Positions 39,862-63,480 of a stretch of DNA of 64,000 bases are shown one piece after another. The stretch covers positions 1,152,001 to 1,216,000 of the forward strand of contig CBDCFN010000016.1 of assembly GCA_965216315.1 (NCBI GenBank), in the 5' to 3' direction. Below the pieces are notes generated by a model. That model made no database searches. It saw only the letters and a list, made by a program, of their open reading frames with translations, and had not been told where the DNA came from. Made by a program: the position numbers and the translations under genes. This stretch comes from a bacterium (GTDB lineage Bacteria > UBA10199 > 2-02-FULL-50-16 > JAJFLM01). Position 1 is the first letter of the stretch. Each line of letters begins with the position of its first letter.

Positions 39862-39935
<74 letters not shown>

Positions 39936-39944
39936 CATTCATTA

Positions 39945-44421: not shown

Positions 44422-46713
44422 GTGGCCCATTCACTTGTCATTGTTGAGTCGCCGGCTAAGGCCAAGACGATCGGGAAGTATCTCGGCAAGGGATATCGCG
44501 TCAAAGCTTCGGTGGGGCATATTAAGGATCTTCCCAAGAGTAAATTGGGCGTCGACATCGAGGATGATTTTAAGCCGACTTATAAGGTGATCTCCGGCAA
44601 GAAGCAGACGATTACGGAGCTGAAAAAAGCGGCCGAAGGGGCCGAGCATATTTATCTCGCCCTCGACCCCGATCGCGAAGGGGAGGCGATCGCCTTTCAT
44701 CTGGCCGAAGAACTGTCGGCCAAGAAGAAAGGGCGCAAAAAAGCGGACGACGGGGAAGACAAGACCTTTGACGGGCGGATTCAACGCATCCTCTTTAACG
44801 AGATTACTAAAAAAGCGATTCAAGCCGCGGTCAAGGCCCCGAAGGCCTTAGATAAGCATCTCTATGAGGCCCAGCAAGCCCGCCGTATCCTGGATCGCCT
44901 CGTGGGTTATCAGTTGTCGCCGCTGCTCTGGGAAAAGGTCAGGCGCGGGTTGTCGGCCGGGCGCGTTCAGTCGGTTTCGCTCCGGATTATTTGCGAGCGG
45001 GAACGTGACATCAAGGCCTTTAACATCGAGGAGTATTGGTCGCTGCATGCCCAGTTAGAAGGAAGTCAGCAGCCGACCTTCGAGGCGAAGCTGGCGAAGA
45101 TCGATGGAAAAAAACCGGAGATCGGGGATGAGACGCTCGCCAAGGGTCTCGTCGATGAATTTAAGGCGCAGCCCTTTCTCCTGAAAGAGGTGGTGCGTAA
45201 AGAGCGCCGCCGCAAAGCCGCCCCTCCTTTTATAACGAGTACCTTGCAGCAGGAGGCCGCGCGTAAGCTGGGCTTTACGGCGAAACGGACGATGCGGGCC
45301 GCGCAGGGACTCTATGAAGGGGTTGATCTCGGCGACGAGGGTTCGGTGGGGCTGATTACGTATATGCGAACCGACTCAACCCGTATCTCGGATGATGCCT
45401 TGGCGGAGGCGCGCGACTTGATCAATAAAAAATATGGCGCGGACTATCTGCCGGAAAAGCCGAACGTTTATAAGAGTAAAAAAGGCTCCCAGGATGCGCA
45501 TGAGGCGGTCCGGCCGACGAGCGTGAATTATGAGCCGAGCCAAATAAAGGGGTTCTTGGAAAAAGACCAGTTCAAACTCTACGATCTGATTTGGAAGCGC
45601 TTTATGGCCTGTCAGATGGCCCATGCCGTGATGGACCAAACGAGTCTCGTCATCGAGGCCGGGCGGGGCGAATTCAGGGCCTCAGGGTCCGTGATTAAGT
45701 TTCCCGGTTTTCTGGCGATCTATCAGGAAGGCCGCGATGATGACAAAGAAGATGAAAACGAAACCAAAGACCAACTGCCGGATCTCAAAGACGGTGAGAC
45801 CTTAAAGCTGCTGGAATTGCGGCCCGACCAACATTTTACCGAACCCCCGCCGCGTTTCACCGAGGCCTCCTTGATTAAAGAGCTCGAAGAGAAGGGGATT
45901 GGGCGGCCGTCGACCTATGCCGCCATTCTATCGAATATTGTCGACCGCGAATATGTCCACAAAGAGGACAAGCGCTTGGCACCGACGGATCTCGGTTTTA
46001 TCGTCAATGACCTCCTGGTCGAGAATTTCCCGAACGTGATGAACGTCGAATTTACCGCCAAGATGGAGCAGGAGCTTGATGGGGTTGAAGAAGGCTCCTG
46101 CAATATGGTCGGGGCGGTACGCGATTTCTACGAGCCTTTCGAAAAGAATCTCGAGCGGGCCAAGGTGCACATGAAGAACATGAAGGCCCAGGAGATTGAA
46201 ACCGAAGTCGTCTGCGAAAAATGCGGTAAGCCCATGGTGATCAAATGGGGTCGCCGGGGTGAGTTCCTCGCCTGCACGGGTTATCCGGAGTGCCGTCATA
46301 CCTGTGAGTTTCAAAAGGACGATGAGGGCCGGGTCATTCCGATGAAGATGGAGGTGACCGGGGAATTCTGCGCGGAATGTGCGTCGCCGATGATATTAAA
46401 GAAAGGGCGTTACGGTTCGTTTCTCGCCTGTTCGCGTTATCCTGATTGCAAGGCGACCCGCTCGGTGAATATAGGCGTCGAATGTCCGCTTTGTGGCGGC
46501 AATGTCGTCGAGCGCCGGACTAAAAAAGGCAAAGTGTTCTTTGGCTGCAGCGCTTACCCCAAGTGTACGTTTGCCAGCTGGAGTAAACCCATCAACGAAA
46601 AGTGTCCGGATTGTAGCTCTCCTTATCTTATTGAGAAGGAAACGAAAAAAGACGGCCAGTACATCGCTTGTCCGGAAAAAGAATGTCCCTATCGTCGTGA
46701 GGTTCCGGCGTGA
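44422..46713 (+). CDS. topA: DNA topoisomerase I
   Basis: IVESPAKAKTI, DPDREGE, SAGRVQS, LITYMRTDS, C-terminal zinc ribbons. Confidence 0.98.
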   Translation: MAHSLVIVESPAKAKTIGKYLGKGYRVKASVGHIKDLPKSKLGVDIEDDFKPTYKVISGKKQTITELKKAAEGAEHIYLALDPDREGEAIAFHLAEELSAKKKGRKKADDGEDKTFDGRIQRILFNEITKKAIQAAVKAPKALDKHLYEAQQARRILDRLVGYQLSPLLWEKVRRGLSAGRVQSVSLRIICERERDIKAFNIEEYWSLHAQLEGSQQPTFEAKLAKIDGKKPEIGDETLAKGLVDEFKAQPFLLKEVVRKERRRKAAPPFITSTLQQEAARKLGFTAKRTMRAAQGLYEGVDLGDEGSVGLITYMRTDSTRISDDALAEARDLINKKYGADYLPEKPNVYKSKKGSQDAHEAVRPTSVNYEPSQIKGFLEKDQFKLYDLIWKRFMACQMAHAVMDQTSLVIEAGRGEFRASGSVIKFPGFLAIYQEGRDDDKEDENETKDQLPDLKDGETLKLLELRPDQHFTEPPPRFTEASLIKELEEKGIGRPSTYAAILSNIVDREYVHKEDKRLAPTDLGFIVNDLLVENFPNVMNVEFTAKMEQELDGVEEGSCNMVGAVRDFYEPFEKNLERAKVHMKNMKAQEIETEVVCEKCGKPMVIKWGRRGEFLACTGYPECRHTCEFQKDDEGRVIPMKMEVTGEFCAECASPMILKKGRYGSFLACSRYPDCKATRSVNIGVECPLCGGNVVERRTKKGKVFFGCSAYPKCTFASWSKPINEKCPDCSSPYLIEKETKKDGQYIACPEKECPYRREVPA

Positions 46714-47621
46714 GTCCCCCATTGGACCCGACCATCAAACAATTTTTGGAATGGCTGGAAAATGAGAAAAGAGCCTCGAAGCATACGGTGTCCAATTACC
46801 GGCGCGATCTGCGGCAATGGAAAACATTTCTGGAAGGTCGCTATCCGGATGCTATCAAGGCCGGCCAGATTATCCTGAAAAAAGTCAGCCCGGACATGAT
46901 CCGTGATTGGTTGGCGCATCTCTTTAGTGACCATCAGGCCTCGTCGATTGCGCGCAAGTTGGCTGCGGTGCGTTCGTTTTTTAAATTTCTATCGCGTCGT
47001 CATGGTTTGCCGGTTGATCCCGCGCAGCAAGTCAGTGCGCCCAAGCAGCCGAAAAAAATACCGGTGTTCTTAGGGGTTGATGACCTCCTGCACTTGTTGG
47101 CGAGTATCAAGACCGATACCTGGCTGGGCTTGCGGAACCGGGCCATCGTTGAAATGCTCTATTCTTCGGGCCTGCGGGTCGGCGAATTGGTCGGGCTCGG
47201 CCTTGCGGACATCGATTTTGAAGGGCACGTCCTGCGTGTCATGGGCAAGGGAAGTAAAGAACGCTTAGTGCCCTTTGGTAAGACGGCGAATGAAGCGCTG
47301 AAGGAATATATGTTGCAACGAACGGCGAAGGCTCAGGCCGGGGAAGAGGCTTTATTCATCAATAAATTGGGCAGACGCTTGACCGCGCGGAGTGTGGAGC
47401 GACTCATCGAGAAATTAAGGCGTGACGCCGGTCTCGCGGCGCGGGTCACGCCGCATACCTTGCGGCATAGTTTTGCCACCCATCTGCTCGATGGGGGCGC
47501 CGATTTGCGGAGTATTCAGGAGCTGTTGGGGCATGCCAATCTCTCGACAACCCAGAAGTACACGCATATTACGCTTGATCGATTGATGGAAGTGTACGAT
47601 AAAGCTCATCCTAAGGCCTAG
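46710..47621 (+). CDS. xerC: Tyrosine recombinase XerC
   Basis: GLRVGEL, GKGSKER, HTLRHSFATH, LGHA..STTQKY; topA-xerC-hslVU context. Confidence 0.93.
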   Translation: MSPPLDPTIKQFLEWLENEKRASKHTVSNYRRDLRQWKTFLEGRYPDAIKAGQIILKKVSPDMIRDWLAHLFSDHQASSIARKLAAVRSFFKFLSRRHGLPVDPAQQVSAPKQPKKIPVFLGVDDLLHLLASIKTDTWLGLRNRAIVEMLYSSGLRVGELVGLGLADIDFEGHVLRVMGKGSKERLVPFGKTANEALKEYMLQRTAKAQAGEEALFINKLGRRLTARSVERLIEKLRRDAGLAARVTPHTLRHSFATHLLDGGADLRSIQELLGHANLSTTQKYTHITLDRLMEVYDKAHPKA

Positions 47622-50533: not shown

Positions 50534-51724
50534 ATGGATCTCGAGACCATAATCAGTACATCACAGCAGTATCTCATCGGGAACTATAAGCGCTTTCCGG
50601 TCGCCTGGAAAAAGGGCAAGGGAGTCTATCTCTGGGATACGACGGGGAAGAAATATCTCGATTTAGTCGCCGGCATTGCGGTCAATACCCTGGGCTATAA
50701 TCATCCGCGCATTGCCTATGTCCTGTCCAAGATGGCGACGCACCCGCTGCATGTCAGTAATCTCTATGAAATCGAAGAGCAGGCCGCGCTCGCCAAAAAG
50801 CTCGTTGATCTGAGTTTTGCCGCCAAGGCGTTCTTTTGTAACAGTGGCACGGAAGCGACCGAAGCCGCGGTCAAGGTCGCCCGCAAGTGGGGTAACGAGA
50901 AGGCAGACCAGCCGCGCAACGAAATCTTAACGACCTCCATGTCGTTTCACGGCCGGACGCTCAGTATGATCGCGGCCTCGGGGCAAGAAAAGCTGCGGAA
51001 GGGTTTCGATCCGATGCTGCCGGGGTTTCGTCACGTCCCTTATAATGATGCCACTGCCATGCGGGAAGCGGTCGGGCCCGAGACCTGTGCGATCATGGTC
51101 GAGCCGGTGCAGGGCGAGGGCGGCATCAATATTCCGGATCGGAATTATTTAAAGGAACTCAAGGATATCTGTCAGGAGCACCAACTGCTCTTGATCTTGG
51201 ATGAGGTGCAGAGTGGGATTGCCCGGACCGGGACGATGTTTGCCTACGAACAGTTTGGCGTCGTGCCGGATATTATCGCCTTAGCCAAGGGCCTGGGCGG
51301 CGGCGTACCGATCGGGGCGATGTTGGCCCGTGAATCCGTGGCGGAGAGCCTGACCCCGGGGTCCCATGGGAGTACCTTTGGGGGCAACCCGCTGGTGACG
51401 GCCGTGGCCACCGCGGTACTGGAGGCGATCGAGGAAGAAGATCTCGTGGAGCAGAGTGCGGAACTGGGGCAGTATTTCTTAAAATGCCTTAACGAGCTGC
51501 AGTCGCGCTATGATTTCTTACATGGCGCCCGGGGGATCGGGCAGATGCTGGCGATTGATATTGATCAGGAGGCACGCCCCGTTGTAGAAAAGTGTTTGGA
51601 AGAGGGCTTGATAATCAATGCCGTGCAGGCGCATACCTTGCGCTTTTTGCCGCCGCTCATCATCAATCGGAAGCAGATTGATGAGGGCATTGAAATTTTG
51701 GACTCGGTTTTTAAGGAATTGTAA
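50534..51724 (+). CDS. argD: Acetylornithine aminotransferase
   Basis: NSGTEA.E, FHGRT, EPVQGEGG, DEVQ.G, AKGLGGG. Confidence 0.95.
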   Translation: MDLETIISTSQQYLIGNYKRFPVAWKKGKGVYLWDTTGKKYLDLVAGIAVNTLGYNHPRIAYVLSKMATHPLHVSNLYEIEEQAALAKKLVDLSFAAKAFFCNSGTEATEAAVKVARKWGNEKADQPRNEILTTSMSFHGRTLSMIAASGQEKLRKGFDPMLPGFRHVPYNDATAMREAVGPETCAIMVEPVQGEGGINIPDRNYLKELKDICQEHQLLLILDEVQSGIARTGTMFAYEQFGVVPDIIALAKGLGGGVPIGAMLARESVAESLTPGSHGSTFGGNPLVTAVATAVLEAIEEEDLVEQSAELGQYFLKCLNELQSRYDFLHGARGIGQMLAIDIDQEARPVVEKCLEEGLIINAVQAHTLRFLPPLIINRKQIDEGIEILDSVFKEL

Positions 51725-52629
51725 TGAAAAAGGACCTGTTAACACTGTGGGATCTGGAGGCGGAAGAAATACTCTCCATCGTCGATGATGCGGTGACGGA
51801 GAAGGAATGTCCGACCGCCGATCAACCGCTCGCCGGCAAGACCTTGGCCCTCGTCTTTGAGAAGTCCTCTACGCGCACCAAAGTCAGTTTTACCGTCGCG
51901 GCGCAGCAACTAGGCGCCGGCGTCGTGAGTTTGGATCAACAAAGCAGCCAACTCGGTCGTGGGGAGACCCATGCCGATACGGGCCGGGTCTTGAGTCAAT
52001 ATGTCGATGGCATTGTGCTCAGGACCTTTGCGCAGCGCAATCTCGAAGAGCTTGCCGCGGCTGCGAGCGTGCCCGTGATCAATGGTCTCTCTGATGCCTA
52101 TCACCCTTGCCAAGTCCTTGCCGACCTTGCGACGGTTCAAGAAAACTTTGGTGAGTTAAAGGATATTCGCTTTGCCTGGGTTGGGGATGGCAACAATATG
52201 ACCCATAGCTGGATTGTCGCGGCGGCCAAGTTAGGGCTTGAGCTGCAGATTGCCACTCCGAAGGGCCGGGAGCCGGCCGCGGATGTCGTCAAACGAGCCG
52301 GTGAGTTGACGGACAAAATCCATATCGGTACGGACCCGGTGGCAGCGGTCAAGGGGGCTCACGTGATTAATGCGGATACCTGGGTGAGTATGGGGCAGGA
52401 AGATGAGGCCGAAGCGGTAGCGGTCTTTGAACCGTATCAGGTAAACGCGGCGCTTTTGAAGCACGCGACGGATAGTGCCATCGTATTACATTGCTTGCCG
52501 GCTCACCGGGGCGAGGAAATCACCGATGAGGTGATGGACGGGCCGCAATCACGTATCTGGCAGCAGGCCCAGTATCGCCTGCATGCCCAAAAGATTATTT
52601 TGAAACGTTTTATGGGGGATAGGACTTAA
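51724..52629 (+). CDS. argF: Ornithine carbamoyltransferase
   Basis: FEKSSTRT, HPCQ, WVSMG, HCLP. Confidence 0.97.
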   Translation: MKKDLLTLWDLEAEEILSIVDDAVTEKECPTADQPLAGKTLALVFEKSSTRTKVSFTVAAQQLGAGVVSLDQQSSQLGRGETHADTGRVLSQYVDGIVLRTFAQRNLEELAAAASVPVINGLSDAYHPCQVLADLATVQENFGELKDIRFAWVGDGNNMTHSWIVAAAKLGLELQIATPKGREPAADVVKRAGELTDKIHIGTDPVAAVKGAHVINADTWVSMGQEDEAEAVAVFEPYQVNAALLKHATDSAIVLHCLPAHRGEEITDEVMDGPQSRIWQQAQYRLHAQKIILKRFMGDRT

Positions 52630-52630
52630 T

Positions 52631-53836
52631 ATGGCTGCGAAGAAGAAAATTGTTGTCGCCTATTCGGGCGGGCTGGATACCTCGATTATAATTCGCTGGT
52701 TGATCGAAGAGTATGACTTTGATGTCATCGCGTACATTGCCGACCTCGGGCAGGAAGAACCACTCCAGCAGATCAAGCAAAAGGCCCTCAAGACCGGGGC
52801 CTCCAAGGCCATTATCTCCGATCTCCGCGAAGAATTCGTCAAAGATTACGTCTGGCCCATGCTGCGCGGCAACGCGCGCTATCAAGATACCTACTTGCTG
52901 GGCACCTCGATTGCGCGGCCGATCATCGCGAAGGAACATGTGCGGATCGCTAAGAAAGAGAAGGCGGCCTATGTGTGTCACGGTGCGACCGGTAAGGGGA
53001 ACGACCAGATTCGCTTTGAGCTGACCTATTATGCCTTGGCTCCAAAGATACAAGTTATTGCGCCGTGGAGAGAATGGTCTTTTGAAGGGCGCCAAGATCT
53101 TATCGACTATGCCAAGAAGCATGGCATTCCGGTACCGGTCTCCAAGAAGAAGCCCTATAGTATGGACCGGAATCTCCTTCACCTGAGTTTTGAGGGGGGG
53201 ATCTTAGAAGATCCTTGGGCGGCGCCGCCGGAGGATATGTTTGTTTTGACCCAGTCGCCGCAAAAAGCCCCGGCGAAACCCCAGGATCTGACCCTTGAGT
53301 TCAAGAAGGGTGATGTCGTCAAGATTAACGGCAAGGCGGGGACGCCTGCGCAGTTGTTGCAGCGCCTTAATAAGGTGGCCGGCAAGCACGGCGTGGGGCG
53401 GGTCGACATGGTCGAGGATCGCTTCACGGGCATGAAGAGCCGCGGGGTCTATGAAACCCCCGGCGGGACCGTCATTCACGTCGCCCGCGGGGCCCTGGAA
53501 TCGATCACGCTCGATCGGGAGGTCCGGCAGATTCTGCTGAGTACGATGCCTCATTATGCCGAGGCCGTGTATAACGGGTTTTGGTTCGCGCCGGAACGCG
53601 AGTTGATGCAGGAAATGATCGATAGTGCCCAATCCGCCGTTACCGGCTCGGTGCGGGTGCGGCTTTATAAAGGGAGCTGTACTGTGCTCGGGCGGAAGGC
53701 GCCGAAGTCGCTGTTTAGTAAGGAGTATGCGACTTTTGAGAGTGATAAGGTTTATAAGCAGAATGATGCTGAGGGGTTTATTAAGCTGAATGCCCTGAGG
53801 TTGAAACTGCAGGCGATGGTTAGACCGAGGCGGTAG
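52631..53836 (+). CDS. argG: Argininosuccinate synthase
   Basis: [35 protein letters not shown]. Confidence 0.98.
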   Translation: MAAKKKIVVAYSGGLDTSIIIRWLIEEYDFDVIAYIADLGQEEPLQQIKQKALKTGASKAIISDLREEFVKDYVWPMLRGNARYQDTYLLGTSIARPIIAKEHVRIAKKEKAAYVCHGATGKGNDQIRFELTYYALAPKIQVIAPWREWSFEGRQDLIDYAKKHGIPVPVSKKKPYSMDRNLLHLSFEGGILEDPWAAPPEDMFVLTQSPQKAPAKPQDLTLEFKKGDVVKINGKAGTPAQLLQRLNKVAGKHGVGRVDMVEDRFTGMKSRGVYETPGGTVIHVARGALESITLDREVRQILLSTMPHYAEAVYNGFWFAPERELMQEMIDSAQSAVTGSVRVRLYKGSCTVLGRKAPKSLFSKEYATFESDKVYKQNDAEGFIKLNALRLKLQAMVRPRR

Positions 53837-53846
53837 GGGAGAGTTT

Positions 53847-54497
53847 CTAGTTTTCTTTGCATGATTGCGGTTTAATTTTACGGGACGGAGTAAACTCTAC
53901 CGTTGTGCCCTTTTTACATTTGATACCTTGAATAATCTCATCTTCGGCAAGTAGTGCTCTTTGTATTGACTCTGTGTGGGAATAATATGTTGCGGATCCT
54001 TTCACAATTCTGATTCCCTGCGCTCTTACAACCCCATCAGGTAATGTCTCACATGATTGCTCTATAAGCTTACCGTTTTCGTCAAAATCGATATACACTG
54101 AAGCGGGACAGTTAACATCGTGAATCAACATATCACTGCGTAGAATAACGTCTTTAAGTTTTCCGTTTTCACGAAAATTGATTCTTGTAGCCTTTGGGAA
54201 GTTTAGCCCCTGCACCATCATCTGATTTGCGATCATGGCATGTTTTATATTTCCATTTTCATAGAAATATACTCTACTGCCTTTTGGAACAGTAAGTCCC
54301 TGTATTACCATGCGATCGGTGGGTTCAAGTTGATCAATATTCCCGTTTTCGTAAAAACACGCGTATTGACCCTTTGACAGTTTAAAACCCTGAACAAGTT
54401 GATCTTCACTCAAATAACTGCAATTGGGCCTGGAATCGTCAAGAAACATACTGCAACCCGCCCCTATTAATGCGATTATTAGAACCAGTATTTTCAT
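53847..54497 (-). CDS. Putative lipoprotein with ~30-aa beta repeats (FYENG.. / MORN-variant-like)
   Basis: Lipobox-like IGAGC; repeated QG...PKG....F.ENG(N/K). Confidence 0.65.
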   Translation of the reverse strand: MKILVLIIALIGAGCSMFLDDSRPNCSYLSEDQLVQGFKLSKGQYACFYENGNIDQLEPTDRMVIQGLTVPKGSRVYFYENGNIKHAMIANQMMVQGLNFPKATRINFRENGKLKDVILRSDMLIHDVNCPASVYIDFDENGKLIEQSCETLPDGVVRAQGIRIVKGSATYYSHTESIQRALLAEDEIIQGIKCKKGTTVEFTPSRKIKPQSCKEN

Positions 54498-54647
54498 ATG
54501 CTAGCCTGCAACGTTGCCCTGCAGATATATAAGTTGATGGTTCAAAAGTATCTGTTTCTGAAACACTGATTGTAGCGAGATTGGCGCCTGAAATCACTGA
54601 GAAAAGACACACAAGCAATTCACAATACGGAGAAGAGCTTGCATGAG

Positions 54648-54671
54648 GACACAAGACGGAGCTGAGCTCCC
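54648..54671 (+). repeat. Island motif, L type
   Basis: GACACAAGACGGAGCTGAGCTCCC abutting the argG 3' copy; degenerate copy CACAATACGGAGAAGAGCTT at 54621-54640. Confidence 0.85.
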
Positions 54672-55085
54672 TTTACCGGGATGAAGAGTCGCGGGGTCTA
54701 TGAAACACCCGGTGGAACGGTTATTCATAGTGCCCGTTGTGCGCTTGAATCGATCACCCTCGATCGGGAAGTCAGGCAGATCCTGCTGAGTACTATGCCT
54801 CATTATGCAGAGGCCGTGTATAATGGGTTTTGGTTTGCTCCGGAGCGGGAGTTGTTGCAGGAAATGATTGATAGTGCTCAGGAAGCCGTTACTGGCTCGG
54901 TGCGGGTGCGGCTGTATAAAGGGAGTTGTACCGTCTTAGGGCGGAAGGCGCCGAAGTCGCTGTTTAGTAAGGAGTATGCGACTTTTGAGAGTGATAAGGT
55001 TTATAAGCAGAATGATGCCGAGGGCTTTATCAAGCTCAACGCTTTGAGGCTGAAGTTGCAAGCGATGGTTCGACCGAGGCGGTAG
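54672..55085 (+). pseudogene. argG: Duplicated 3' third of argG (5'-truncated fragment)
   Basis: Colinear with 53423-53836; 4 amino-acid differences; lacks the N-terminal two thirds. Confidence 0.9.
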
Positions 55086-55122
55086 GGGGTGGGTTAGGAG
55101 CTAGACTGTGAATTAGTTCATA

Positions 55123-56316
55123 TTAGGTGTGATTCTCAAGTTGAGTAATAGTGAACCTCAGTCTAGCTAACAAATCATCATATGTAATGATATCAACGAT
55201 ATTCTTATATTTTCTCTTTATGACCTCGAAGTCTTGCTTTTGTTCTGACTTCAGATTTTCATCCCTCCCCATCACGATGATTCCACTCGGATTCGTGATC
55301 TTGATGCTGAAGCCGTCTGGTAGCCTATCTTGATATCGCTCAGATAGGGTCATTTCACCTGCTCGTCCCCATTTGTTTAGGTAGAAAATGTACTTCTCAA
55401 TCTGCATTACCGTACCGGAGAGTTCCCGTAGTGGGATGTAGTTATCTCTATATTGACTATTGGTGACAATGCATTTATCAAATGGTTGTTTGATTTCCAC
55501 TATGTCAGTATTGCCCGACGAATCCACCAAGAGAAAATCCAATTCTCTAGTTTTTTGATTGTAGGTATCCCTAATCTTCGCTGATTTGAATACCCTTATG
55601 TATTTAGGGTAAAGCAAAAGAATAATTTGCACTATCTGATCCTGCCATTGCGCCTCACTGTACGTATTCTCATTATTCAGCATGTCAGTAAGTTTTTTTT
55701 GTAGTAATGTGTATTTGATAATTTCATTGTCCTTAAATATTTCTATGAGATCTTCTCCTGTGTTCACGATTTTTTTATTCAGGTACTGGTGATATTTCTT
55801 TTCACCGTCGTATTTAGTCTCAAAGTAATCTCTGATAATAGCGCTGACTCTTGCTTCAACGTATAATCTCAATTCGTAAGTATTCGGAAAGTACTTGATG
55901 AGCAGATTAAAATCCTCTTCTGGTATGCTATCAGGGTGGTTGCCTCCAATGCGAATCAACTTTGCTCCTAAAGCGCTCACCTTGGAAAAAATTGATACAT
56001 TTTTTTCAGCAGTAAATGATCGATAGGTAAGAGGAATATCTTGGTGGATCCATAAATCGAATTCGATTGAAAGAATTCTTCTATGTATTAGGAAGTATTC
56101 ACCATGCTTTTTTCCAATATTGAACTCAACAGGTATATCTGGATTAGGCGTTACTTCTGTGCTTGATCCGTACAGATCTTCTTTTGTGACGTGAAATGTG
56201 TTCTTTAGACATACTGTCTCATCATTATTAAGTCTCCGGTATAGCCAATCGTTATCGCTATTCGTAGTGTCGTATTCTAATACCAGAGAATCATTGACTT
56301 TTTCGAACTCAAGCAC
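55123..56316 (-). CDS. Shedu-like (DUF4263) anti-phage nuclease
   Basis: SE..WQ, DFLLVD....DIVEIK.P, YRDNY.P.RELSG..MQ..KY, IITYDDLL motifs of the DUF4263 PD-(D/E)xK domain. Confidence 0.8.
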   Translation of the reverse strand: MLEFEKVNDSLVLEYDTTNSDNDWLYRRLNNDETVCLKNTFHVTKEDLYGSSTEVTPNPDIPVEFNIGKKHGEYFLIHRRILSIEFDLWIHQDIPLTYRSFTAEKNVSIFSKVSALGAKLIRIGGNHPDSIPEEDFNLLIKYFPNTYELRLYVEARVSAIIRDYFETKYDGEKKYHQYLNKKIVNTGEDLIEIFKDNEIIKYTLLQKKLTDMLNNENTYSEAQWQDQIVQIILLLYPKYIRVFKSAKIRDTYNQKTRELDFLLVDSSGNTDIVEIKQPFDKCIVTNSQYRDNYIPLRELSGTVMQIEKYIFYLNKWGRAGEMTLSERYQDRLPDGFSIKITNPSGIIVMGRDENLKSEQKQDFEVIKRKYKNIVDIITYDDLLARLRFTITQLENHT

Positions 56317-56403
56317 GGTAATTAATGAACCTCGAGGACGTAACTATTCGTTAGTATGGTTGTTTCTTTCTTATAGCGCAAGCATTTCACAGCAAAGCAG
56401 GAT

Positions 56404-56424
56404 GACACAAGGTGGAGGTGCGAA
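56404..56424 (+). repeat. Island motif, R type
   Basis: GACACAAGGTGGAGGTGCGAA; matches the reverse complement of 60538-60556. Confidence 0.75.
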
Positions 56425-56674
56425 TAGGTTACCTTGCTCTGGCCCTCTAAATAATTACTCTCCAGCCGAAGAAGTAAATTTTTTTCTAATCTCCGACTAA
56501 TTTTATTCAAATTAAAGGCATGCGCCAAGCGTTATTGAATAGCGCTTGGCGGGGGGTGGATAAATTTTCGCCATGTGAAGGCGATGTGCTCGTTTGTTAG
56601 TTCTTTTAGCGCAACATGATTTAATATATTCTGTCGAAACGACGTCCTAATCGACGAATAAACTTACAAATGAC

Positions 56675-58531
56675 ATGGCAAGAAACGTTAATGATGCATA
56701 TAAATCCCAAAACAGATGGCGTGCTGTATTAGATCATACTGAAGGAACCCTTGTTGTAAACGCTGGTCCTGGTACAGGAAAGACATTTAGCTTGTTGAGA
56801 AAAATTGAGCAGCTTCTTAATGATGGTACAGATCCGGATAAGATATATTATCTCACATTTGTGAATAGCATCGTTGATGCATTTAAAGCAGATGTTGCGA
56901 AAGCTGAGGCGAATGGTGGACTTGGGAGAGACGCTGATGAATTAGGAATAAGAATCTCAACACTGCACAGTTTAGGCTTTAAGGTTGTTAAAGCTTATGC
57001 AGCCAAGCTAGGGCTCTCAGAGCATATCGAGGTTGTTGAAGCTTCTAAAAAGCCGGTTCGAATTATTTCGAAGCTGTTTGTTTCAGATCTATATTTTTTA
57101 GCTAAAGATGACGGCGTAGTTTCAGACAAGAGAGGATTTAAAACGGCGTTGTTAAGGCTGCAGAAAGCTTGGCAAAGTGGGAATGCAGTACCAATAGAAT
57201 TGCAAGGGCTAGATGAACTTGTAGATAAGCTAAGTCGGAAGTATGAAGCGCTTTCGTGGGACCATTTGGTGCTGCTAGCAAATCAGGCTATTGAATCCTA
57301 CGGATTGCCCAAATGGCTCAAGGATGCAGAACATTTTATGATTGATGAATACCAAGACTTTAATCCGGCAGAGCAACGTTTGATTGATTTGGTTACTGAA
57401 CCTTCGGATTCTGTTGTCATCGTAGGGGATATGGACCAAAGTATTTATAGCGGTAGATCCGCTTCTCCGCAGGGACTACAAGAATTGCTAGAGCACAATC
57501 ATGTATCTACGGTCAACTTCGTGTATTGCCGCAGATGTCCGATAAAAGTAATTGAAGCGGCAAACCGTATGCTGGAACTTATGGATCCTAACAATTTCCA
57601 AGATAGAGCCTTGCAGGCGTTTAAAGGAGAAGAGGGGTTGCTACATATAAGCCATGTTAGGAGTTGCAAAGCAGAACTAGATTTGATCGCGGCTGAGATC
57701 AAGGAACATCTATCTAATGGCACGACAGATATAGCTATCTTGATGCCGGGTAGAAAAGGTATGGACTATTACAGGGATAAGCTGAAAGAGCGGGGCATTA
57801 ACTGTGTTATTCATAAGACTGGCAATGAGGAGCGGGAAATGTTGTCTGTATACCTGCGATTAGCTATTCTGAAGGAACAAGCTCTACTTGAACGAGTCTT
57901 GCTGAGTACGTTTCCAGCTCTCGAGAGGAGATTTCAAAGGGATGTGCTGCCTCGAATGATCATGCAGGATCTTTCGATTGTCGAAGCTCTGAGAGCTGCA
58001 GAGCTAGAAGTGGGGAGCGGGTGGCGTAATGATGTCCGTCAAGCTCTTCAGAAGTTCGAAGAAGAGCTGAAACTAATTAGGTCTCAAGATTCAAATAAAT
58101 TATCGGTATTCCTAAAAGAAAAGGGATGGGAGGTTCCAGAAGACCAATTGAAGGAAATATTAGATGATGAGCATGATGCATGGACCGTTGCAGAGCGAGT
58201 TGATATGATAATTAAGCAGCTCGATCATAATAAGGATGAAGAAGAAACATCCGATGCTACTGTACAATTACTCACGATGCATAGTTCCAAAGGGCTTTCC
58301 AAAAGTGTGGTAATTATGCCAGCTCTTGAAGACAAGTGGATACCAGCTAGATCAGTTGGTGAGGCTCTGAAAGAAAAGCATCGATTATTTTATGTAGCGC
58401 TGACAAGATCGGAAGAATGTATGATTATTACTTATCCCAGGACTCGAGCGAGAGGTGATCCTTTAAACCATACCCCACAGGGGGCTAATGAAGGTCCATC
58501 ACGATATTTGGAGACAATCGATAATATATAG
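56675..58531 (+). CDS. UvrD/Rep-like superfamily 1 helicase
   Basis: AGPGTGKT, STLHS, IDEYQD, VGD.DQSIY, TMHSSKGL, RLFYVALTRS. Confidence 0.9.
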   Translation: MARNVNDAYKSQNRWRAVLDHTEGTLVVNAGPGTGKTFSLLRKIEQLLNDGTDPDKIYYLTFVNSIVDAFKADVAKAEANGGLGRDADELGIRISTLHSLGFKVVKAYAAKLGLSEHIEVVEASKKPVRIISKLFVSDLYFLAKDDGVVSDKRGFKTALLRLQKAWQSGNAVPIELQGLDELVDKLSRKYEALSWDHLVLLANQAIESYGLPKWLKDAEHFMIDEYQDFNPAEQRLIDLVTEPSDSVVIVGDMDQSIYSGRSASPQGLQELLEHNHVSTVNFVYCRRCPIKVIEAANRMLELMDPNNFQDRALQAFKGEEGLLHISHVRSCKAELDLIAAEIKEHLSNGTTDIAILMPGRKGMDYYRDKLKERGINCVIHKTGNEEREMLSVYLRLAILKEQALLERVLLSTFPALERRFQRDVLPRMIMQDLSIVEALRAAELEVGSGWRNDVRQALQKFEEELKLIRSQDSNKLSVFLKEKGWEVPEDQLKEILDDEHDAWTVAERVDMIIKQLDHNKDEEETSDATVQLLTMHSSKGLSKSVVIMPALEDKWIPARSVGEALKEKHRLFYVALTRSEECMIITYPRTRARGDPLNHTPQGANEGPSRYLETIDNI

Positions 58532-58562
58532 AGGTGCTTTTAAATCTTAAGGAGGGTTATCG

Positions 58563-59381
58563 ATGAAGGTTTTCATAGGATGGTCACATGAAGTCAGCCA
58601 TAAGATGGCGTTGGCAATACACGAATGGTTTCCCAACGTAATTCAGTCTATTGAACCTTATGTATCATCTGAGGATATTTCTAAGGGCAGTCACTGGTTT
58701 TCGGATGTATGTGACAATTTAGATCAAGCTGATTTTGGAATCATATGTCTTACTCCTGATAATGTAAATGAGCCATGGATTCTATTTGAGGCAGGCGCGT
58801 TAGGTACGAAATTTGGGAGATCAAAGGTTTGCCCATTATTGTGGCGTATATCTGCTACCGACCTTAAAGGTCCATTGTCACATTTTCAATCATGTGCATT
58901 AAATGCAGATGATATGTTACGACTTGTCGGTGATATAAATAAGCAATTAAATTCGAGTATATCAGATGAAAGGCTCGTCAGTACATTCGAACTATGGTGG
59001 CCAAAATTAGAAGAGAAATTGTCTTCTATTCATGAAACAGCCCCGCTTGATTCTTCATCAGGGAAAAGTAGAGGTGACAGAGATCTATTAGAGGAAGTTC
59101 TCCAGCGAGTTCGTGCATTGAAGAATAGCATGGATAGAAGATTCAATGCCGCGAGTAACGTAAATGTTTATGAATGCCATCAAGATAATGCTAAGCCCCG
59201 TGAAGGTTCTGAAGGCATTGAACTTCTTCAGGGTCAGTTGGATAATTTTGAACGGAATTTTATTGGAAGAATTTTAAAAAGTAATAAATTCAACTTAGAT
59301 TTAGCTGCCAGAACGTTAGGAATTCATAGGAAGACGCTAGAGTATAAGATGAAGAGACTGGATATAGACATGCCAAACTAG
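58563..59381 (+). CDS. TIR-domain protein with C-terminal Fis-type HTH
   Basis: KVFIGWS...W.....L...DFGIICLT..N...PWILFEAGAL (TIR); ER..I...L.....N...AARTLGIHRKTL.YK (Fis HTH). Confidence 0.8.
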   Translation: MKVFIGWSHEVSHKMALAIHEWFPNVIQSIEPYVSSEDISKGSHWFSDVCDNLDQADFGIICLTPDNVNEPWILFEAGALGTKFGRSKVCPLLWRISATDLKGPLSHFQSCALNADDMLRLVGDINKQLNSSISDERLVSTFELWWPKLEEKLSSIHETAPLDSSSGKSRGDRDLLEEVLQRVRALKNSMDRRFNAASNVNVYECHQDNAKPREGSEGIELLQGQLDNFERNFIGRILKSNKFNLDLAARTLGIHRKTLEYKMKRLDIDMPN

Positions 59382-59398
59382 GAGAATCAAAAAAAGAA

Positions 59399-59422
59399 GG
59401 CACAAGACGGAGGTAAGCTCCC
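59399..59422 (+). repeat. Island motif, L type
   Basis: GGCACAAGACGGAGGTAAGCTCCC, 17 nt after the TIR gene stop. Confidence 0.85.
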
Positions 59423-59569
59423 TTTTAGGTGTAGTCGGGGATAAGACTCCAAAAATAAGACTCACCCAGTAGCGATAATTTGCACTTCACGCGGCTAGTG
59501 CTAGAGATTAAAATATGTGACGACTTGATGAAACATATAATCTACACATGACAATGATTTCGGTAAACT

Positions 59570-60460
59570 GTGATGAATGAACTGTGGTTGACAGCAAAAA
59601 ATATTATTTTTCAATGGGTGCTACCAATTGCTGGTTTTTTAGGTTTGATATATGGGTGGCGAAGCTACCGTATAGCTAAGCGGAGCCAAAAAAATAGGAA
59701 GTTGAAATTTGAATGTAATGAAAGAGCACTCGTTTTTTCAAGCAAACTTACTGAAAAGGATAGTGTTGATTTCAGACTCAACGGTGAAAGAGTTAGAAAT
59801 TTATATTTTCTTGAATTCACTATTACAAATATCGGCAATGAGGTCCTGTATGCTAAAGATTTTAGGGAGCCATTCCAAATTGAATTCCCGGGTGAGATAA
59901 ATATTTTCCCACTACGCATCGAACGCGATAAAAATGATATCAACATCACATACGACATTAAACCTGAAAGTACAAAGACGACGGTGACAATCAATACAGA
60001 ACTCGTGGAGCCGAAGGACAAAATCATCTTTACACTACTATATGAGGCTACGAAGTACGCTGGTTATGTGCCTGTCGTGCGGATAATAGATGGCAATTTG
60101 GAGAATGTTAGATCCGATTGGGGACGTGAGGAGTCCTCTGAAGACATCGAGGCGAGAATACGAAAGAAATATGAACGTCGTTCTAAGCTAGGTGACTTGC
60201 CGGTGATGATAATGACAGGTCTTTTTTGTGCGCTCATTGCGCTGCCAGTTTACATAATATATCCAGATTTTTTTGCGGATGATTATGAATATAGCATCAT
60301 TCGTAATATTATCATTGGTTGTGTTGCTCTGATTGTTCTAAGTGGCGTTATGAGGTATGCTTTGCGAAGTCACCAGAAATGGTTCAATGAATTTGTTAAT
60401 GAGAAGGTTGATGAAGCAAAACGCAGAAAATTTCTATTGCCACATGAAGGAGATAGGTAA
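59570..60460 (+). CDS. Hypothetical membrane protein (N-terminal TM, beta-rich domain, two C-terminal TMs)
   Basis: 296-aa ORF with hydrophobic segments; AT-rich. Confidence 0.65.
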   Translation: MMNELWLTAKNIIFQWVLPIAGFLGLIYGWRSYRIAKRSQKNRKLKFECNERALVFSSKLTEKDSVDFRLNGERVRNLYFLEFTITNIGNEVLYAKDFREPFQIEFPGEINIFPLRIERDKNDINITYDIKPESTKTTVTINTELVEPKDKIIFTLLYEATKYAGYVPVVRIIDGNLENVRSDWGREESSEDIEARIRKKYERRSKLGDLPVMIMTGLFCALIALPVYIIYPDFFADDYEYSIIRNIIIGCVALIVLSGVMRYALRSHQKWFNEFVNEKVDEAKRRKFLLPHEGDR

Positions 60461-60465
60461 GAAGA

Positions 60466-60556
60466 GACACAAGACGGAGGTGAGATCCCCTGGGGCACGA
60501 ACTGCGGGCTAGATTTCAGCTAATCTCGTGTGCCGTTTTCGTACCTCCACCTTGTG
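60466..60556. mobile_element. Mini non-autonomous element (REPIN/MITE-like doublet of the island motif)
   Basis: GACACAAGACGGAGGT ... ACCTCCACCTTGTG inverted ends ~90 bp apart; internal sequence resembles both flanks of the transposase gene. Confidence 0.7.
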
Positions 60557-60558
60557 GG

Positions 60559-60599
60559 CTGCCAATTTTCCCCTTGAGCTCCCCCGCATCCTCAACTAG
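60559..60599 (+). repeat. 41-bp duplicate of the VOC-gene upstream region
   Basis: 39/41 identical to 62079-62119. Confidence 0.9.
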
Positions 60600-60612
60600 T
60601 AAGACACAATAA

Positions 60613-60964
60613 GACACAAGACGGAGGTGAGCTCCCATGGCGCACGAAATTCGGACTAGATTACAGCGGATTTGGTTTACGGATTATTGCTTCTGTTAGT
60701 TTTCGACGATGATGGTGCTGGTTTGGGCCGGATCGCTACTTTAATGCCGAGATTGGATCGTCAGCCGGCCATTAAAGCGCATTCACGATATAGCTGTGCG
60801 CCATTTTCTTAAAACTGAATTGTATGAGCTGGTTTAGTTTTCTTTATGGGACATTTTCACCAAAGCGTAGGGCATGACGCTCTTTCCAGTCGGCATACTG
60901 ATCCTTGCGAATCTCTTTGATTTCCCGTGTCTTCCAATTGACCCAATTTGGGTTACCAATGAAG
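60613..60964. repeat. Diverged tandem copy of motif + downstream region + transposase 3' end
   Basis: Colinear with 60969-61324; begins GACACAAGACGGAGGTGAGCTCCC. Confidence 0.9.
60844..60963 (-). pseudogene. Transposase C-terminal fragment (39 aa + stop)
   Basis: FIGNPNWVNWKTREIKEIRKDQYADWKERHALRFGENVP*, 37/39 identical to the intact transposase end. Confidence 0.88.
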
Positions 60965-61203
60965 AAAAGACACAAGACGGAGGTAAGTTCCCCTAGCGCA
61001 CGAGATTCGGACTAGATTTCATAGGATCTCGCTTACGGATTGTTACTTCTGTTAATTTTACGGCAATGATGGGTTTGGTTTGGGGCGGATTACTATTTTA
61101 ATGCCAAGATTTGCTCATTATTCAGCCATTAAAGCGCATCCAAGGTATAGCTGTCCGCTGGTTTTCTAAAAACTGAATTGTATGAACTGATTTATTTTTT
61201 TCT

Positions 61204-61917
61204 TTAGGGGACATTCCCACCAAAGCGGAGGGCATGTCGCTCTTTCCAGTCGGCATACTGATCCTTGCGAATCTCTTTGAGCTCCCGAGTCTTCCAATTA
61301 ACCCAATTTGGGTTACCAATGAAGCACGTGCTTGAATACGGTTTCTTTTCCTTCCAGTCGTTCTTAAGGATTTCTTGAATCATCGCGAGGTATGCTGCCT
61401 GTCGGCGTTGAGGCGTGGAGCTTAGTGTGAGATAAGATGGGGCTGGGGTGATGAGGGGGTCAGCTGTACCGTAGGCATAGTAGCCGAAAGATGAGTATTC
61501 GTTGTGTCGGGGATGCTTGACCTTGTAGGCCCGTTTGGGATTGAGGTCGATGTAGAGCATGACCTTGAGTAAATCACGATCTGTTTGAATACTCGGGGAT
61601 TTAAATCGATCCATGACTACCTGGCCGCGTCTTTGGACTTGCTTGTTGTAGGCCTTGGCAAAGCATGCGTTTACGACACGGAAGAAATCAGAGAAGGTTT
61701 CTAACTCCTCCATACGTCCAGACAAATGGATATGATTATCCATGAGACAGTACGAGTAGATCTGCACTGAGTATCGGTCCTTATATTTTAGTAACAGCTG
61801 ATAGTAGAGCTCCTTGGCCCAGCATTCTTTGAGGAGCCAGGACTTATTATGGCACTGCCACGTGACGTGGAAGGTGGATTCCTCTTCGAGGATGGCACGG
61901 CGGGGGAGTGAAGGCAT
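61204..61917 (-). CDS. HUH Y1 transposase, RAYT/TnpA(IS200)-like
   Basis: MP..PR, FHVT, YCLMDNHIHL (HUH), RFKS, YIDLNP.RA (catalytic Tyr), YSSF; ATG 61917 preferred over TTG 61947. Confidence 0.88.
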   Translation of the reverse strand: MPSLPRRAILEEESTFHVTWQCHNKSWLLKECWAKELYYQLLLKYKDRYSVQIYSYCLMDNHIHLSGRMEELETFSDFFRVVNACFAKAYNKQVQRRGQVVMDRFKSPSIQTDRDLLKVMLYIDLNPKRAYKVKHPRHNEYSSFGYYAYGTADPLITPAPSYLTLSSTPQRRQAAYLAMIQEILKNDWKEKKPYSSTCFIGNPNWVNWKTRELKEIRKDQYADWKERHALRFGGNVP

Positions 61918-61930
61918 TAGAACTGCATAG

Positions 61931-61946
61931 AGCAAGGACTGTGCCA
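61931..61946 (-). promoter_or_regulatory. Sigma54 (-24/-12) promoter of the transposase
   Basis: TGGCAC-AGTCC-TTGCT on the minus strand. Confidence 0.65.
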
Positions 61947-62125
61947 AGATGGCATTCGATAAAAAATAGGTAGTTAGCGTTTATTGGGACCAGGGAAGGG
62001 TTTCAAGTTGAGACGCGCGAGTCTCGTTTTCGTACCTCCGTCTTGTGGCCATTGTGGCCATTTCTCCACCTTGCGGAACTGCCAATTTTCCCCTTGAGCT
62101 CCCCCGCATTCTCGACTAGCACTAA

Positions 62126-62524
62126 GTGACTATCAAAACCCCACCCTCACAACTAAGCACCCTCAACCACATCGCCCTCAAGGTCCGCGATCTTGCGGCC
62201 TGCACCGACTTCTATCACGGCATCCTTGGCCTGGAGCTCATCGAAAGGCAACAAAATGAGACCGGGGCCGAGCGAGCCGTTTGGTTTCGATTGGCGGACG
62301 GCATCCTCATGCTGGAAAGACAGGAGGAGGGGACTAAGGCTTCGATAGCGTCCGAAGCCGGCTGGCATTTGCTCGCGTTGACGATTCCGGAGACGTCACG
62401 TGACCAATGGAAAGACTACTTAAGCAGTCATGATATCTCGATCGCGCAGGAGAGCGCGTATTCGCTTTATTTTCGGGACCCCGAAGGCAATCGCGTGGCG
62501 TTGTCGCATTTTGCCTCAGCATGA
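62126..62524 (+). CDS. VOC (glyoxalase) family protein
   Basis: LNHIALKVRDL....FY..ILGL, H.A, LYFRDPEGN. Confidence 0.9.
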   Translation: MTIKTPPSQLSTLNHIALKVRDLAACTDFYHGILGLELIERQQNETGAERAVWFRLADGILMLERQEEGTKASIASEAGWHLLALTIPETSRDQWKDYLSSHDISIAQESAYSLYFRDPEGNRVALSHFASA

Positions 62525-62525
62525 A

Positions 62526-62571
62526 GAGATAAGCCGGAGGTGAACTCCTTTTTGGAGGCTAACTTGTGGCC
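62526..62571. repeat. Degenerate island motif doublet
   Basis: GAGATAAGCCGGAGGTGAACTCC immediately after the VOC stop, followed by CTTGTGGCC. Confidence 0.55.
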
Positions 62572-62574
62572 CTC

Positions 62575-63255
62575 TCATTTCATTAAACGCTGATCCTTAA
62601 GTCGATAAAGCGTTCTCTTTTCTTTCTGTGGGCGGATGAACTCTTTTAGCTGCGCTGGAGACATATCGATTTTAGCCGGACATTGCCCAGGAAAATCACG
62701 GATAAAATTTCGCTCTGGAACGTTAACAACGTTAAGATGCGATCTATCGGAATCGGATGCCATAACCATGCGAGGCACCTCTACAGTACTGCTTGATGGT
62801 GAGGTTTCCGAATTGTCCGTTTCTGTAGTTAGTTCGATGCGGTTAAAGGGTATGATGAATTGGCCTTCTTCCGTGATAATGGGAGACGTACTGAAACAAG
62901 AATGGTAGTTTTCACATAGGCAATTAAAAATCTGTTCAGAGAATGTTGCGTGAAGTCTTTCAAGACACATATTAAAGTATGCGACACGGCTTTCAGTCGT
63001 GTTTAGGCGGGCGATTTCTCTGTGGCAGTCCAGCATTCTTTGATAGCCGTCGGCGCCAATGACGCACCTCTCTGCAGACGCCCCTTTTTCCATACATTGC
63101 TCACGGTCCTTTCGCATAGCTTCAATGATGCTGGGCATTTCCAGCGGGGTGAGCCTTTTCAGATCTGGGCCTTGCGTTGGCGGAGCGGCTTGGCTCAAGG
63201 GGATAAAGGTAAGGCTTAGTAGGGCGGCAATAAATAGGGTTAGGGTGGTTCGCAT
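62575..63255 (-). CDS. Secreted Cys-rich hypothetical protein
   Basis: Signal peptide MRTTLTLFIAALLSL...SQA; AGGAG RBS before ATG 63255; eight Cys. Confidence 0.7.
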   Translation of the reverse strand: MRTTLTLFIAALLSLTFIPLSQAAPPTQGPDLKRLTPLEMPSIIEAMRKDREQCMEKGASAERCVIGADGYQRMLDCHREIARLNTTESRVAYFNMCLERLHATFSEQIFNCLCENYHSCFSTSPIITEEGQFIIPFNRIELTTETDNSETSPSSSTVEVPRMVMASDSDRSHLNVVNVPERNFIRDFPGQCPAKIDMSPAQLKEFIRPQKEKRTLYRLKDQRLMK

Positions 63256-63310
63256 CGGGGACTCCTGTTTGAAAGTTTTTGTGCTTACGGCTTTATAAGG
63301 GATTAGGTTG

Positions 63311-63326
63311 TGCAAATATTGTACCA
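63311..63326 (-). promoter_or_regulatory. Sigma54 (-24/-12) promoter
   Basis: TGGTAC-AATAT-TTGCA on the minus strand, upstream of the secreted protein. Confidence 0.65.
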
Positions 63327-63361
63327 AGAGTCGTGTAGCTAAATAAAAATAAATTCAGTAA

Positions 63362-63374
63362 TATCAATAGCTTA
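63362..63374 (+). promoter_or_regulatory. IHF-binding site
   Basis: TATCAATAGCTTA matches WATCAANNNNTTR in an AT-rich tract upstream of the sigma54 promoter. Confidence 0.55.
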
Positions 63375-63441
63375 TTGAGTAATTGATTAACATGGTTGTT
63401 ATCATTCTGATAATATTATCATTATGAGAAATAACTATTAA

Positions 63442-63480
63442 GGCGCGAGCCGGCGGTGCAGTCCCCTGGGGGCGAACTGC
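63442..63480 (+). repeat. Degenerate island motif copy
   Basis: GGCGCGAGCCGGCGGTGCAGTCCCCTGGGGGCGAACTGC aligns with 60466-60505 GACACAAGACGGAGGTGAGATCCCCTGGGGCACGAACTGC. Confidence 0.6.

Follow-up and report, generated by a model that had tools for sequence, protein, structure and literature searches.

An intact argG is followed by a displaced second copy of its 3′ end

The window analysed here is a 64,000-nucleotide (nt) stretch of bacterial DNA (GTDB lineage Bacteria; UBA10199; 2-02-FULL-50-16; JAJFLM01), taken from GenBank assembly GCA_965216315.1, contig CBDCFN010000016.1, positions 1,152,001 to 1,216,000 of the forward strand. Its subject is argG, the gene for argininosuccinate synthase, and the DNA inserted behind it. 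argG (52631..53836, plus strand, 401 amino acids (aa)) is the last gene of an argB-argD-argF-argG row. The gene is intact: its product matched the NCBIfam equivalog NF001770 over the full length with 600.6 bits (cut-off 334) and carries both Pfam domains, Arginosuc_synth and Arginosuc_syn_C. The 3′ 414 nt of this working gene, from codon F265 to the stop (copy 1, 53423..53836, plus strand), are repeated downstream as copy 2 (54672..55085, plus strand). Copy 2 is a displaced argG 3′ end with an open frame and no 5′ part, and its Pfam match (PF20979, E 3.5e-41) covers only positions 93-218 of the C-terminal domain. The two copies form a direct repeat with a spacing of 1249 bp, and the argG frame runs unbroken through copy 1.

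Copies 1 and 2 were aligned without gaps and are identical at 359 of 414 bases (86.7%). Both keep the argG frame, free of frameshifts and premature stops, and both end in PRR-TAG-GGGG. Homology is lost at both borders, where the 60 nt upstream and the sequence beyond 4 nt past the stop are unrelated. The first base of copy 2 stands directly after the end (...GAGCTCCC, 54671) of a short motif that is described below. An initial annotation, made from the letters of this DNA, had reported the repeat and its start next to the motif, and it was right to the base. Since the TTT that opens copy 2 is also the usual continuation of the motif (CCCTTTT at 59420 and CCTTTTT at 62547, from the solo copies at 59392 and 62519), the joint is ambiguous by 3-4 nt.

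A sister strain carries an uninterrupted allele

Contig C11 (4592 bp) of the same assembly holds the argD-argF-argG of a sister strain and is 96.3% identical to window 50571-53828. From its argG stop, C11 runs directly into a homologue of 56465-56577, without the lipoprotein gene, the second tail or the Shedu gene that lie between argG and this segment in the window. The alignment to the window resumes 13 nt before the C11 stop. The C11 argG ends in GCCGAAAAGATAA (P-K-R-stop), and the window has GCCGAAGAAGTAA (P-K-K-stop) at 56465..56477 on the plus strand. C11 and this short piece both end in PK(R/K)-TAA-ATTTTT, compared with PRR-TAG-GGGG in copies 1 and 2. We read 56465-56477 as the probable remnant of a third, native-type argG end, and its position suggests two nested insertions. 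The initial annotation had proposed an arrangement that keeps argG intact and places Shedu downstream of a newer unit; the unbroken frame, the uninterrupted C11 allele and the 13-nt remnant all agree with it.

The segment common to both strains (56465..56577, plus strand, 85% identity by alignment) includes a hairpin with a 13-bp stem, and beyond 56577 the cargo of the two strains differs. The hairpin lies within 56478-56580 around CGCCAAGCG...CGCTTGGCG; its fold had a z of -2.9, and none of 200 shuffles folded as well. It follows the native argG stop and may act as a terminator or mark a recombination boundary.

The mismatches between C11 and the window are blocky. The count per 100 bp was zero over 50771-51570, 9-10 around 52771-52970, and 11-16 across the final 450 bp of argG, so that overall it climbed from 0-5 to 11-16. 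The synonymous divergence (dS) between the two alleles was 0.23 over the 5′ 792 nt of argG and 0.77 over the tail. Such a blocky rise toward the argG 3′ end is the pattern that would be expected beside a region exchanged between lineages.

Both argG tails diverged within working genes

We next compared the two tails codon by codon. There were 45 synonymous and 4 non-synonymous differences (V/S, G/C, M/L and S/E), as in the hand count of about 45 and 4 without frameshift that the initial annotation had given. The method of Nei and Gojobori (NG86) gave a non-synonymous divergence (dN) of 0.026, a dS of 0.79 and a dN/dS of 0.033. Neutral simulations with the same number of changes (n=2000) averaged 10.0 synonymous and 38.2 non-synonymous codon differences and reached at most 23 synonymous ones, compared with the 45 observed. 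Of the four residues that set copy 2 apart from copy 1, three (S, C and E) recur in C11, whose argG is full-length, and the remaining one (L) is what most often occupies its site across 91 homologues. By its codons, copy 2 is without any mark of decay. The dN/dS of 0.033 therefore shows that both tails diverged inside working argG genes, under purifying selection. This ratio, a check that the initial annotation had proposed, is not near 1 and speaks against a locally decaying duplicate; together with the replacements common to the C11 allele, it agrees with the claim that copy 2 is the 3′ end of another lineage's working argG.

The tails of copy 1, copy 2 and C11 are roughly equidistant, with pairwise identities of 86.6-88.8% and dS of 0.67-0.79. 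They form one clade (support 83/96), and the next sequence, locus L013 from a metagenome, is at 70-73%. Because the three tails fall in one clade at 87-89% identity, the putative donors are close relatives and no distant taxa. L013 was the sole locus with an argG above 70% amino-acid identity (86%; DNA 74%) among the 80 loci kept in the metagenome scan; it is too distant for an allele-level phylogeny and has no island.

One of the replaced positions is residue 287 of argG (53489-53491 in copy 1 and 54738-54740 in copy 2), where 81 of 91 homologues have R, copy 1 has G, and both copy 2 and C11 have C. Both G and C are one base away from an Arg codon, by changes in different directions.

An 80-bp tract is identical in both copies

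The longest identical run shared by the copies is 80 bp long, at 53690..53769 in copy 1 and 54939..55018 in copy 2 (both plus strand), exactly where the initial annotation had placed it. With 49 of 137 codons differing, a run of at least 26 identical codons arose in a fraction of 8.5e-5 of 200,000 shuffles. The tract is not intrinsically invariant, because C11 departs from both copies at 4 of its 80 positions. The tract reflects exchange between copies 1 and 2, as a crossover or gene-conversion tract.

We then compared the sequences on the two sides of the tract. Sites with G/C in copy 1 and A/T in copy 2 stood to the reverse type at 28:7 on the left and 4:6 on the right (Fisher p=0.022). Sites where C11 matched copy 1 stood to those where it matched copy 2 at 14:26 on the left and 7:4 on the right, which was not significant (Fisher p=0.16). 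The G+C content at third codon positions (GC3) was 0.74 in copy 1 left and 0.77 in copy 2 right of the tract, and 0.54 in copy 2 left and 0.68 in copy 1 right. This GC/AT switch is the pattern that a single crossover in the tract would give, and a later gene conversion is equally possible. With a crossover, each copy would then be a chimera of a GC3-richer resident and a GC3-poorer incoming allele. The suggestion in the initial annotation that the tract marks the crossover thus holds in part: the run is non-random and the GC/AT switch points the same way, but the switch relative to C11 was not significant and conversion fits equally well.

Sequencing reads support the junctions

The arrangement was compared with k=31 contigs from four public runs (two samples of one study, possibly the source sample). 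Contigs with no differences from the window covered 52600-53719 (run X1), 53740-54968 (X1 and X4), 54522-54949 (X3) and 54989-56700 (X1 and X4). The contig for 53740-54968 holds the end of copy 1, the lipoprotein gene, the motif and 297 nt of copy 2, and that for 54989-56700 runs from the end of copy 2 through Shedu and across the 13-nt remnant. The junction 54671/54672 was bridged in three of the four runs (X1, X3 and X4), and 56464/56465 was bridged in X1 and X4. Because these contigs bridge the motif and copy 2, their fusion is no artefact of one assembler. Other k=31 "joints" had sides of 20-36 letters and probably come from the argG of other organisms.

The 80-bp tract forms a k=31 contig of its own at about twice the depth of its neighbours (12 vs 3.9-5.9 in X1, 6.1 vs 3.0-3.6 in X4). 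The three unique parts A, B and C around the repeated tract R had similar depths, 3.9/5.9/5.5 in X1 and 3.0-3.2/3.6/3.1 in X4. Since the contigs break at the tract, they fit an order A-R-B-R-C and an order A-R-C plus a 1249-bp circle B-R alike. The similar depths and the 2.4-Mb contig in which the window lies favour the tandem state. Contigs C2, C3, C10 and C11 of the same bin are strain variants with 86-98% identity to places in the 2.4-Mb contig C16, and at least two related lineages are mixed in it.

The motif beside copy 2 is shared with a RAYT-like gene

The motif that copy 2 abuts is a solo copy, GACACAAGACGGAGCTGAGCTCCC (54641..54671, plus strand), preceded by a degenerate copy at 54622-54641; it would form the right end of the newer of two inserted units. 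A motif search found a variant of the right-end type, CACAAGGTGGAGGTGCGAA (56404..56428, plus strand), near the right end of the putative older unit. Further downstream, the motif flanks an element (60962..62119, minus strand) whose gene (61204-61947) resembles those of Y1 transposases (HUH family) of the repetitive extragenic palindromic (REP)-associated tyrosine transposase (RAYT) type. One motif stands at 60962-60992 on the plus strand, and an inverted copy is at 62018-62048. Repeat analysis also showed a miniature element (60459..60599, plus strand), made of a left-type motif, an inverted right-type motif (60527-60557) and a 41-nt end piece that occurs at 60559-60599 and again at 62079-62119.

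The motif core CACAAG(AC/GT)GGAGGT has seven exact copies in the 2.96-Mb genome. All seven are within 8 kb of the island, at C16:1208406-1214047, and a fuzzy search added isolated weak matches elsewhere. Solo motifs consist of the motif and TTTT and stand directly after stop codons; three plus-strand island genes end just before one. Rfam has no family for the motif. The motif regions folded no better than shuffles beyond a hairpin of 4-5 bp, except 54600-54700 (z -2.1) and 62010-62125 (z -2.4). A 21-nt motif pattern gave no match in public genome contigs and none in metagenome contigs; this pattern was too strict, as the relative L095 has AAGCCCC and the window RAGNTCC.

The Y1 protein (247 aa) matched Pfam Y1_Tnp with E 8.7e-7 and 29.5 bits, above the cut-off of 23. 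Its match to the NCBIfam RAYT model NF047646 (E 5.2e-15, 55.6 bits) was under the cut-off of 80. H-I-H and Y-I-D-L-N-P are visible in the translation. The gene is present once in the genome. Its closest homologue, locus L095 of genome G041 (85% identity), carries these repeats, arranged as they are here, and a single solo copy, and these three are the only motif copies in G041, all on one contig. Inverted repeats with the core GACG(G/A)AGG flank more distant homologues (L100-L103). Inverted flanking repeats were thus found at five of nine homologue loci, and the remaining four had no exact inverted repeat of at least 11 nt. On these patterns, the motif corresponds to the end repeat that a RAYT-like element carries and to REP-like solo derivatives of that repeat, but it is confined to this locus.

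A tandem duplication of about 357 bp with 85% identity spans 60606-61324 and repeats the left-type motif, some 230 bp of the interior and, from the RAYT-like gene, its final 39 codons; 60847-60963 has 95% protein identity to the end of that gene. In L095, a right-type motif at 1769-1846 lies inside the last codons of a cation-efflux-like open reading frame (ORF; 899-1846), which suggests that the element of this relative also stands in or at the 3′ end of that gene.

The space between argG and serC holds variable defence cargo

In L013 and in a genome of the same family (locus L006 of G001), serC follows argG after 30-33 bp. Here serC starts at the equivalent of window position 65778, so that about 11.9 kb is inserted between the two genes; serC, serA and purA lie directly beyond the window end. 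The core row upstream is dprA, topA, a XerC-like recombinase gene, hslV, hslU, argB, argD, argF and argG. The G+C content drops from about 0.55 to 0.38-0.45 over 54-61 kb, and the DNA between the two tails, at 0.39-0.45 compared with about 0.55, has a foreign composition.

Convergent on argG is a low-G+C gene for a predicted lipoprotein of 216 aa with MORN_2 repeats (53847..54497, minus strand; Pfam PF07661, E 2.9e-8). A search for its source gave only distant MORN-repeat relatives, in 11 of 93 class genomes including this one, the best non-self match having 29% identity, and none was informative. Behind copy 2 lies a Shedu gene, sduA (55123..56316, minus strand, 397 aa), with matches to PADLOC PDLC00388 (E 2e-155) and Pfam SduA_C (E 1.4e-39); the SduA match spans residues 1-396, which makes it a full-length member of the family. 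It is followed by genes for a UvrD-like, GajB-like helicase (PDLC00117, E 1.5e-47) and a TIR protein (PDLC03016 TIR-TM, E 7.3e-72) at 56675..59381 on the plus strand, and then by a solo motif at 59392-59422. The TIR protein has an N-terminal TIR domain and a C-terminal Fis-type helix-turn-helix. No GajA partner, as in Gabija, was seen beside the UvrD-like gene, and the two genes may be an uncharacterised two-gene defence pair. Next come a 296-aa protein without a family, a motif, the miniature element and the 357-bp tandem repeat; after the RAYT-like gene, there are a glyoxalase-family gene, a weak motif and three more genes.

C11 has other cargo. At 2-1026 on its minus strand (locus L094), it encodes a DUF5343 protein together with a HEPN-like one, and the two match PDC-M34A (E 2.8e-47) and PDC-M34B (E 5e-14) of a PADLOC candidate system. 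As this cargo replaces Shedu and the UvrD-TIR pair, the defence content between argG and serC varies between co-occurring strains. The argG-serC space is a strain-variable cargo site, with mostly defence genes.

No tyrosine or serine recombinase was found in Pfam scans of the larger island ORFs from 53847 to serC. The only recombinase domain nearby (46710-47621, Phage_integrase, XerC-like) lies inside the core dprA-topA-xerC-hslVU row. Rfam has no family in 53300-64000, where one sub-threshold microRNA match had an E of 0.71. Elsewhere in the window, a 40-nt inverted repeat with 90% complementarity (32736-32775 and 39952-39991) brackets about 7 kb and sits just outside tRNA-Val (32816-32890) and tRNA-Pro (39862-39936).

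Proposed mechanism and alternatives

We propose that argG 3′ ends were displaced serially, each time by DNA that was anchored through homology and joined illegitimately on its right-hand side, a reading to which we give a probability of about 0.6. It builds on the observed anatomy, the purifying selection on both tails and the uninterrupted allele. Cargo would have been added beside argG at least twice. Incoming DNA would pair with argG and bring the donor's argG 3′ end with the cargo behind it, while its right side would be joined illegitimately to resident sequence, and the resident argG tail would be pushed downstream as a promoterless fragment instead of being replaced. In the order of events that we infer, the copy 2 tail, Shedu and the right-type motif would have come in first, cutting the native gene 13 nt from its end. 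The newer event would have brought in a tail, the MORN lipoprotein gene and the solo motif, and the resident gene would have been joined at codon F265 via a TTT(A) microhomology. The newer unit may have arrived as a circle through a single crossover in the 80-bp tract, or as linear DNA by homology-facilitated illegitimate recombination, with the tract later homogenised by gene conversion. The circle-and-crossover version is compatible with the data and weakly supported by the GC/AT switch.

Measured from the argG end, one right-hand joint is at 414 nt and the other at 13 nt. These differing positions, together with the lack of an integrase among the scanned ORFs, fit illegitimate rather than site-specific joining. 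TTT(A) is common to the continuation of solo motifs and to argG codon 265 (TTTACC), a match too short for statistics. As the motif matches the RAYT-like inverted repeats and the joint has this microhomology, the exact fusion requires no motif-specific cut. The core row includes dprA, which is too widespread to argue for competence.

Several points weigh against this reading. A second argG tail was found at none of the 92 other loci with an argG 3′ match (93 loci in total), so that this is a single case so far, and neither donor arrangement, argG-lipoprotein-motif or argG-Shedu without the lipoprotein gene, was found. The native remnant is only 13 nt long, with 12 aligned positions matching and two single-base gaps, and the microhomology has only 3-4 nt. 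The recombinase scan was limited to island ORFs of 50 aa or more. The switch test is weak (p=0.022 on 45 informative sites), with a parallel C11 test at p=0.16. The exact abutment of copy 2 to a transposase-associated motif could mean an enzyme-made joint.

Such a joint would be made by the RAYT-like Y1 protein, or by a different site-specific enzyme, through cleavage at the motif's 3′ border and ligation to argG, so that units of argG tail, cargo and motif are produced or inserted; it would account for copy 2 beginning exactly past the motif. The motif core does make up the inverted repeats around the RAYT-like gene, here and at the five homologue loci, all its exact copies are near the island, three island genes end just before a solo motif, and the miniature element and 357-bp repeat show that the element ends have been active or recombinogenic here. 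We nevertheless think it unlikely, because the right joint of the older unit is 36 nt past its motif, TTT is common to both partners at the boundary, and no second gene fragment fused to a motif was found, the three copies in G041 being without such a fusion. The poor folding of the motif and the sub-cut-off RAYT match also speak against it. A related idea, that small cargo units with a housekeeping-gene homology arm at one end and the transposase-associated motif at the other are released as circles by Y1 cutting at the motif edge and stacked at argG by host recombination, is doubtful; if true, it would be an integrase-free cassette-stacking system for defence genes. It is similarly doubtful that the units are remnants of integrase-borne islands that targeted the argG 3′ end with a replacement tail and later lost the integrase and most of their content. 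An element-borne tail that keeps the gene intact and a displaced tail with mostly synonymous changes are what the published account describes for icd/icdC at e14 (PMC13626634). However, the scanned island ORFs hold no integrase, the two events joined at different argG positions, the identical tract is inside the repeat and not at its edges, no short identical core is present at both junctions, and the newer unit is only 1249 bp.

The arrangement could also be a mis-threaded assembly of a mixed state, in which an argG made of copy 1 left, tract and copy 2 right is followed by Shedu, and the rest is a 1249-bp circle or the allele of another strain. The strain-variant contigs in the bin, the break of the k=31 contigs at the tract and the doubled tract depth fit this. 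We consider it quite improbable, since the unique parts have similar depths and the window is inside a 2.4-Mb contig; moreover, the motif-copy 2 joint was bridged without differences in three runs, and a molecule with the argG tail fused to the motif exists either way. A local tandem duplication of the argG tail with divergence in place would explain the direct repeat and its spacing, and the internal tract could be conversion. This is very improbable: at a dS of 0.79, a startless and promoterless fragment should gather about 38 non-synonymous changes per 10 synonymous ones, the copy 2 replacements are common to a full-length allele of another strain, and the DNA between the copies has foreign composition. 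Local duplication with decay was rejected on dN/dS. An integron was also rejected; no integrase was found among the scanned island ORFs, and the motif matches nothing in Rfam and forms just a hairpin of 4-5 bp, although the search included no dedicated attC model.

Defence genes gather at hot spots bordered by core genes, and the addition of cargo without a dedicated recombinase is rarely visible there. This locus is a layered record, with a core gene left intact, a complete displaced tail, a remnant of 13 nt and, in a sister strain, an uninterrupted allele, and it shows cargo stacked beside a metabolic gene that stays functional. If the process is general, displaced core-gene tails could show in what order, and from where, the genes at defence hot spots were acquired. 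They would also account for core genes next to such sites whose ends vary greatly at synonymous positions. The tie to the repeat of a RAYT-like element is a lead on whether HUH enzymes help to make the joints.

Comparison with known systems

In a genome, classical REPs are scattered in tens to hundreds of copies. The element described here resembles REP/RAYT systems in having an IS200-like Y1 gene between inverted short repeats and solo copies just after the stops of neighbouring genes. It differs in dispersal, with seven exact copies within 8 kb here and three on one contig in G041. In ISCR1-type complex class 1 integrons, a circle with cargo and part of the conserved segment is proposed to recombine and leave a partial duplication. 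The argG locus is similar in having an HUH-family transposase nearby. However, ISCR enzymes are rolling-circle IS91-like transposases and not IS200-like Y1 enzymes, and no equivalents of oriIS or terIS were identified at the argG locus.

In outcome, the argG locus resembles icd/icdC at the cryptic prophage e14 (and phage 21) of E. coli K-12. There the inserted DNA supplies icd with a replacement 3′ end, the original host end survives downstream as a pseudogene for the C-terminus with few and conservative amino-acid changes, and excision or recombination between the tails leads to chimeric alleles (PMC13626634). argG is likewise intact through a substitute tail. The systems differ in that e14, a prophage of 15 kb, has a site-specific recombination system of its own and attaches at a fixed site, whereas the argG locus has a 1249-bp unit, no integrase found, two joint positions and tails that are 13% diverged over 414 nt.

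In the arrays of Rhs C-terminal and Vibrio cholerae type VI secretion system (T6SS) effector-immunity modules, an upstream anchor remains, a new module arrives beside it, and older 3′ fragments are pushed downstream, so that an ordered stack is built without an integrase; the proposed explanation is recombination at the homologous anchor with an illegitimate joint (PMC5361080). Homology at one end with an illegitimate joint at the other defines homology-facilitated illegitimate recombination (PMC3240628). The argG locus has the same build as such displacement arrays, with the intact argG, the 414-nt tail and the 13-nt remnant separated by the lipoprotein and Shedu units, and an uninterrupted allele, that of C11, is present in the population, as expected for a member of this class. 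In the Rhs and T6SS arrays, however, the 3′ ends pushed aside encode unrelated toxin tips and come with immunity genes, whereas here the anchor is a metabolic gene, the tails are homologous ends of working alleles, the cargo is defence or accessory genes, and a joint lies beside a RAYT-like repeat. So far the argG locus stands alone, as one example of a familiar type of process in a setting that appears to be new.

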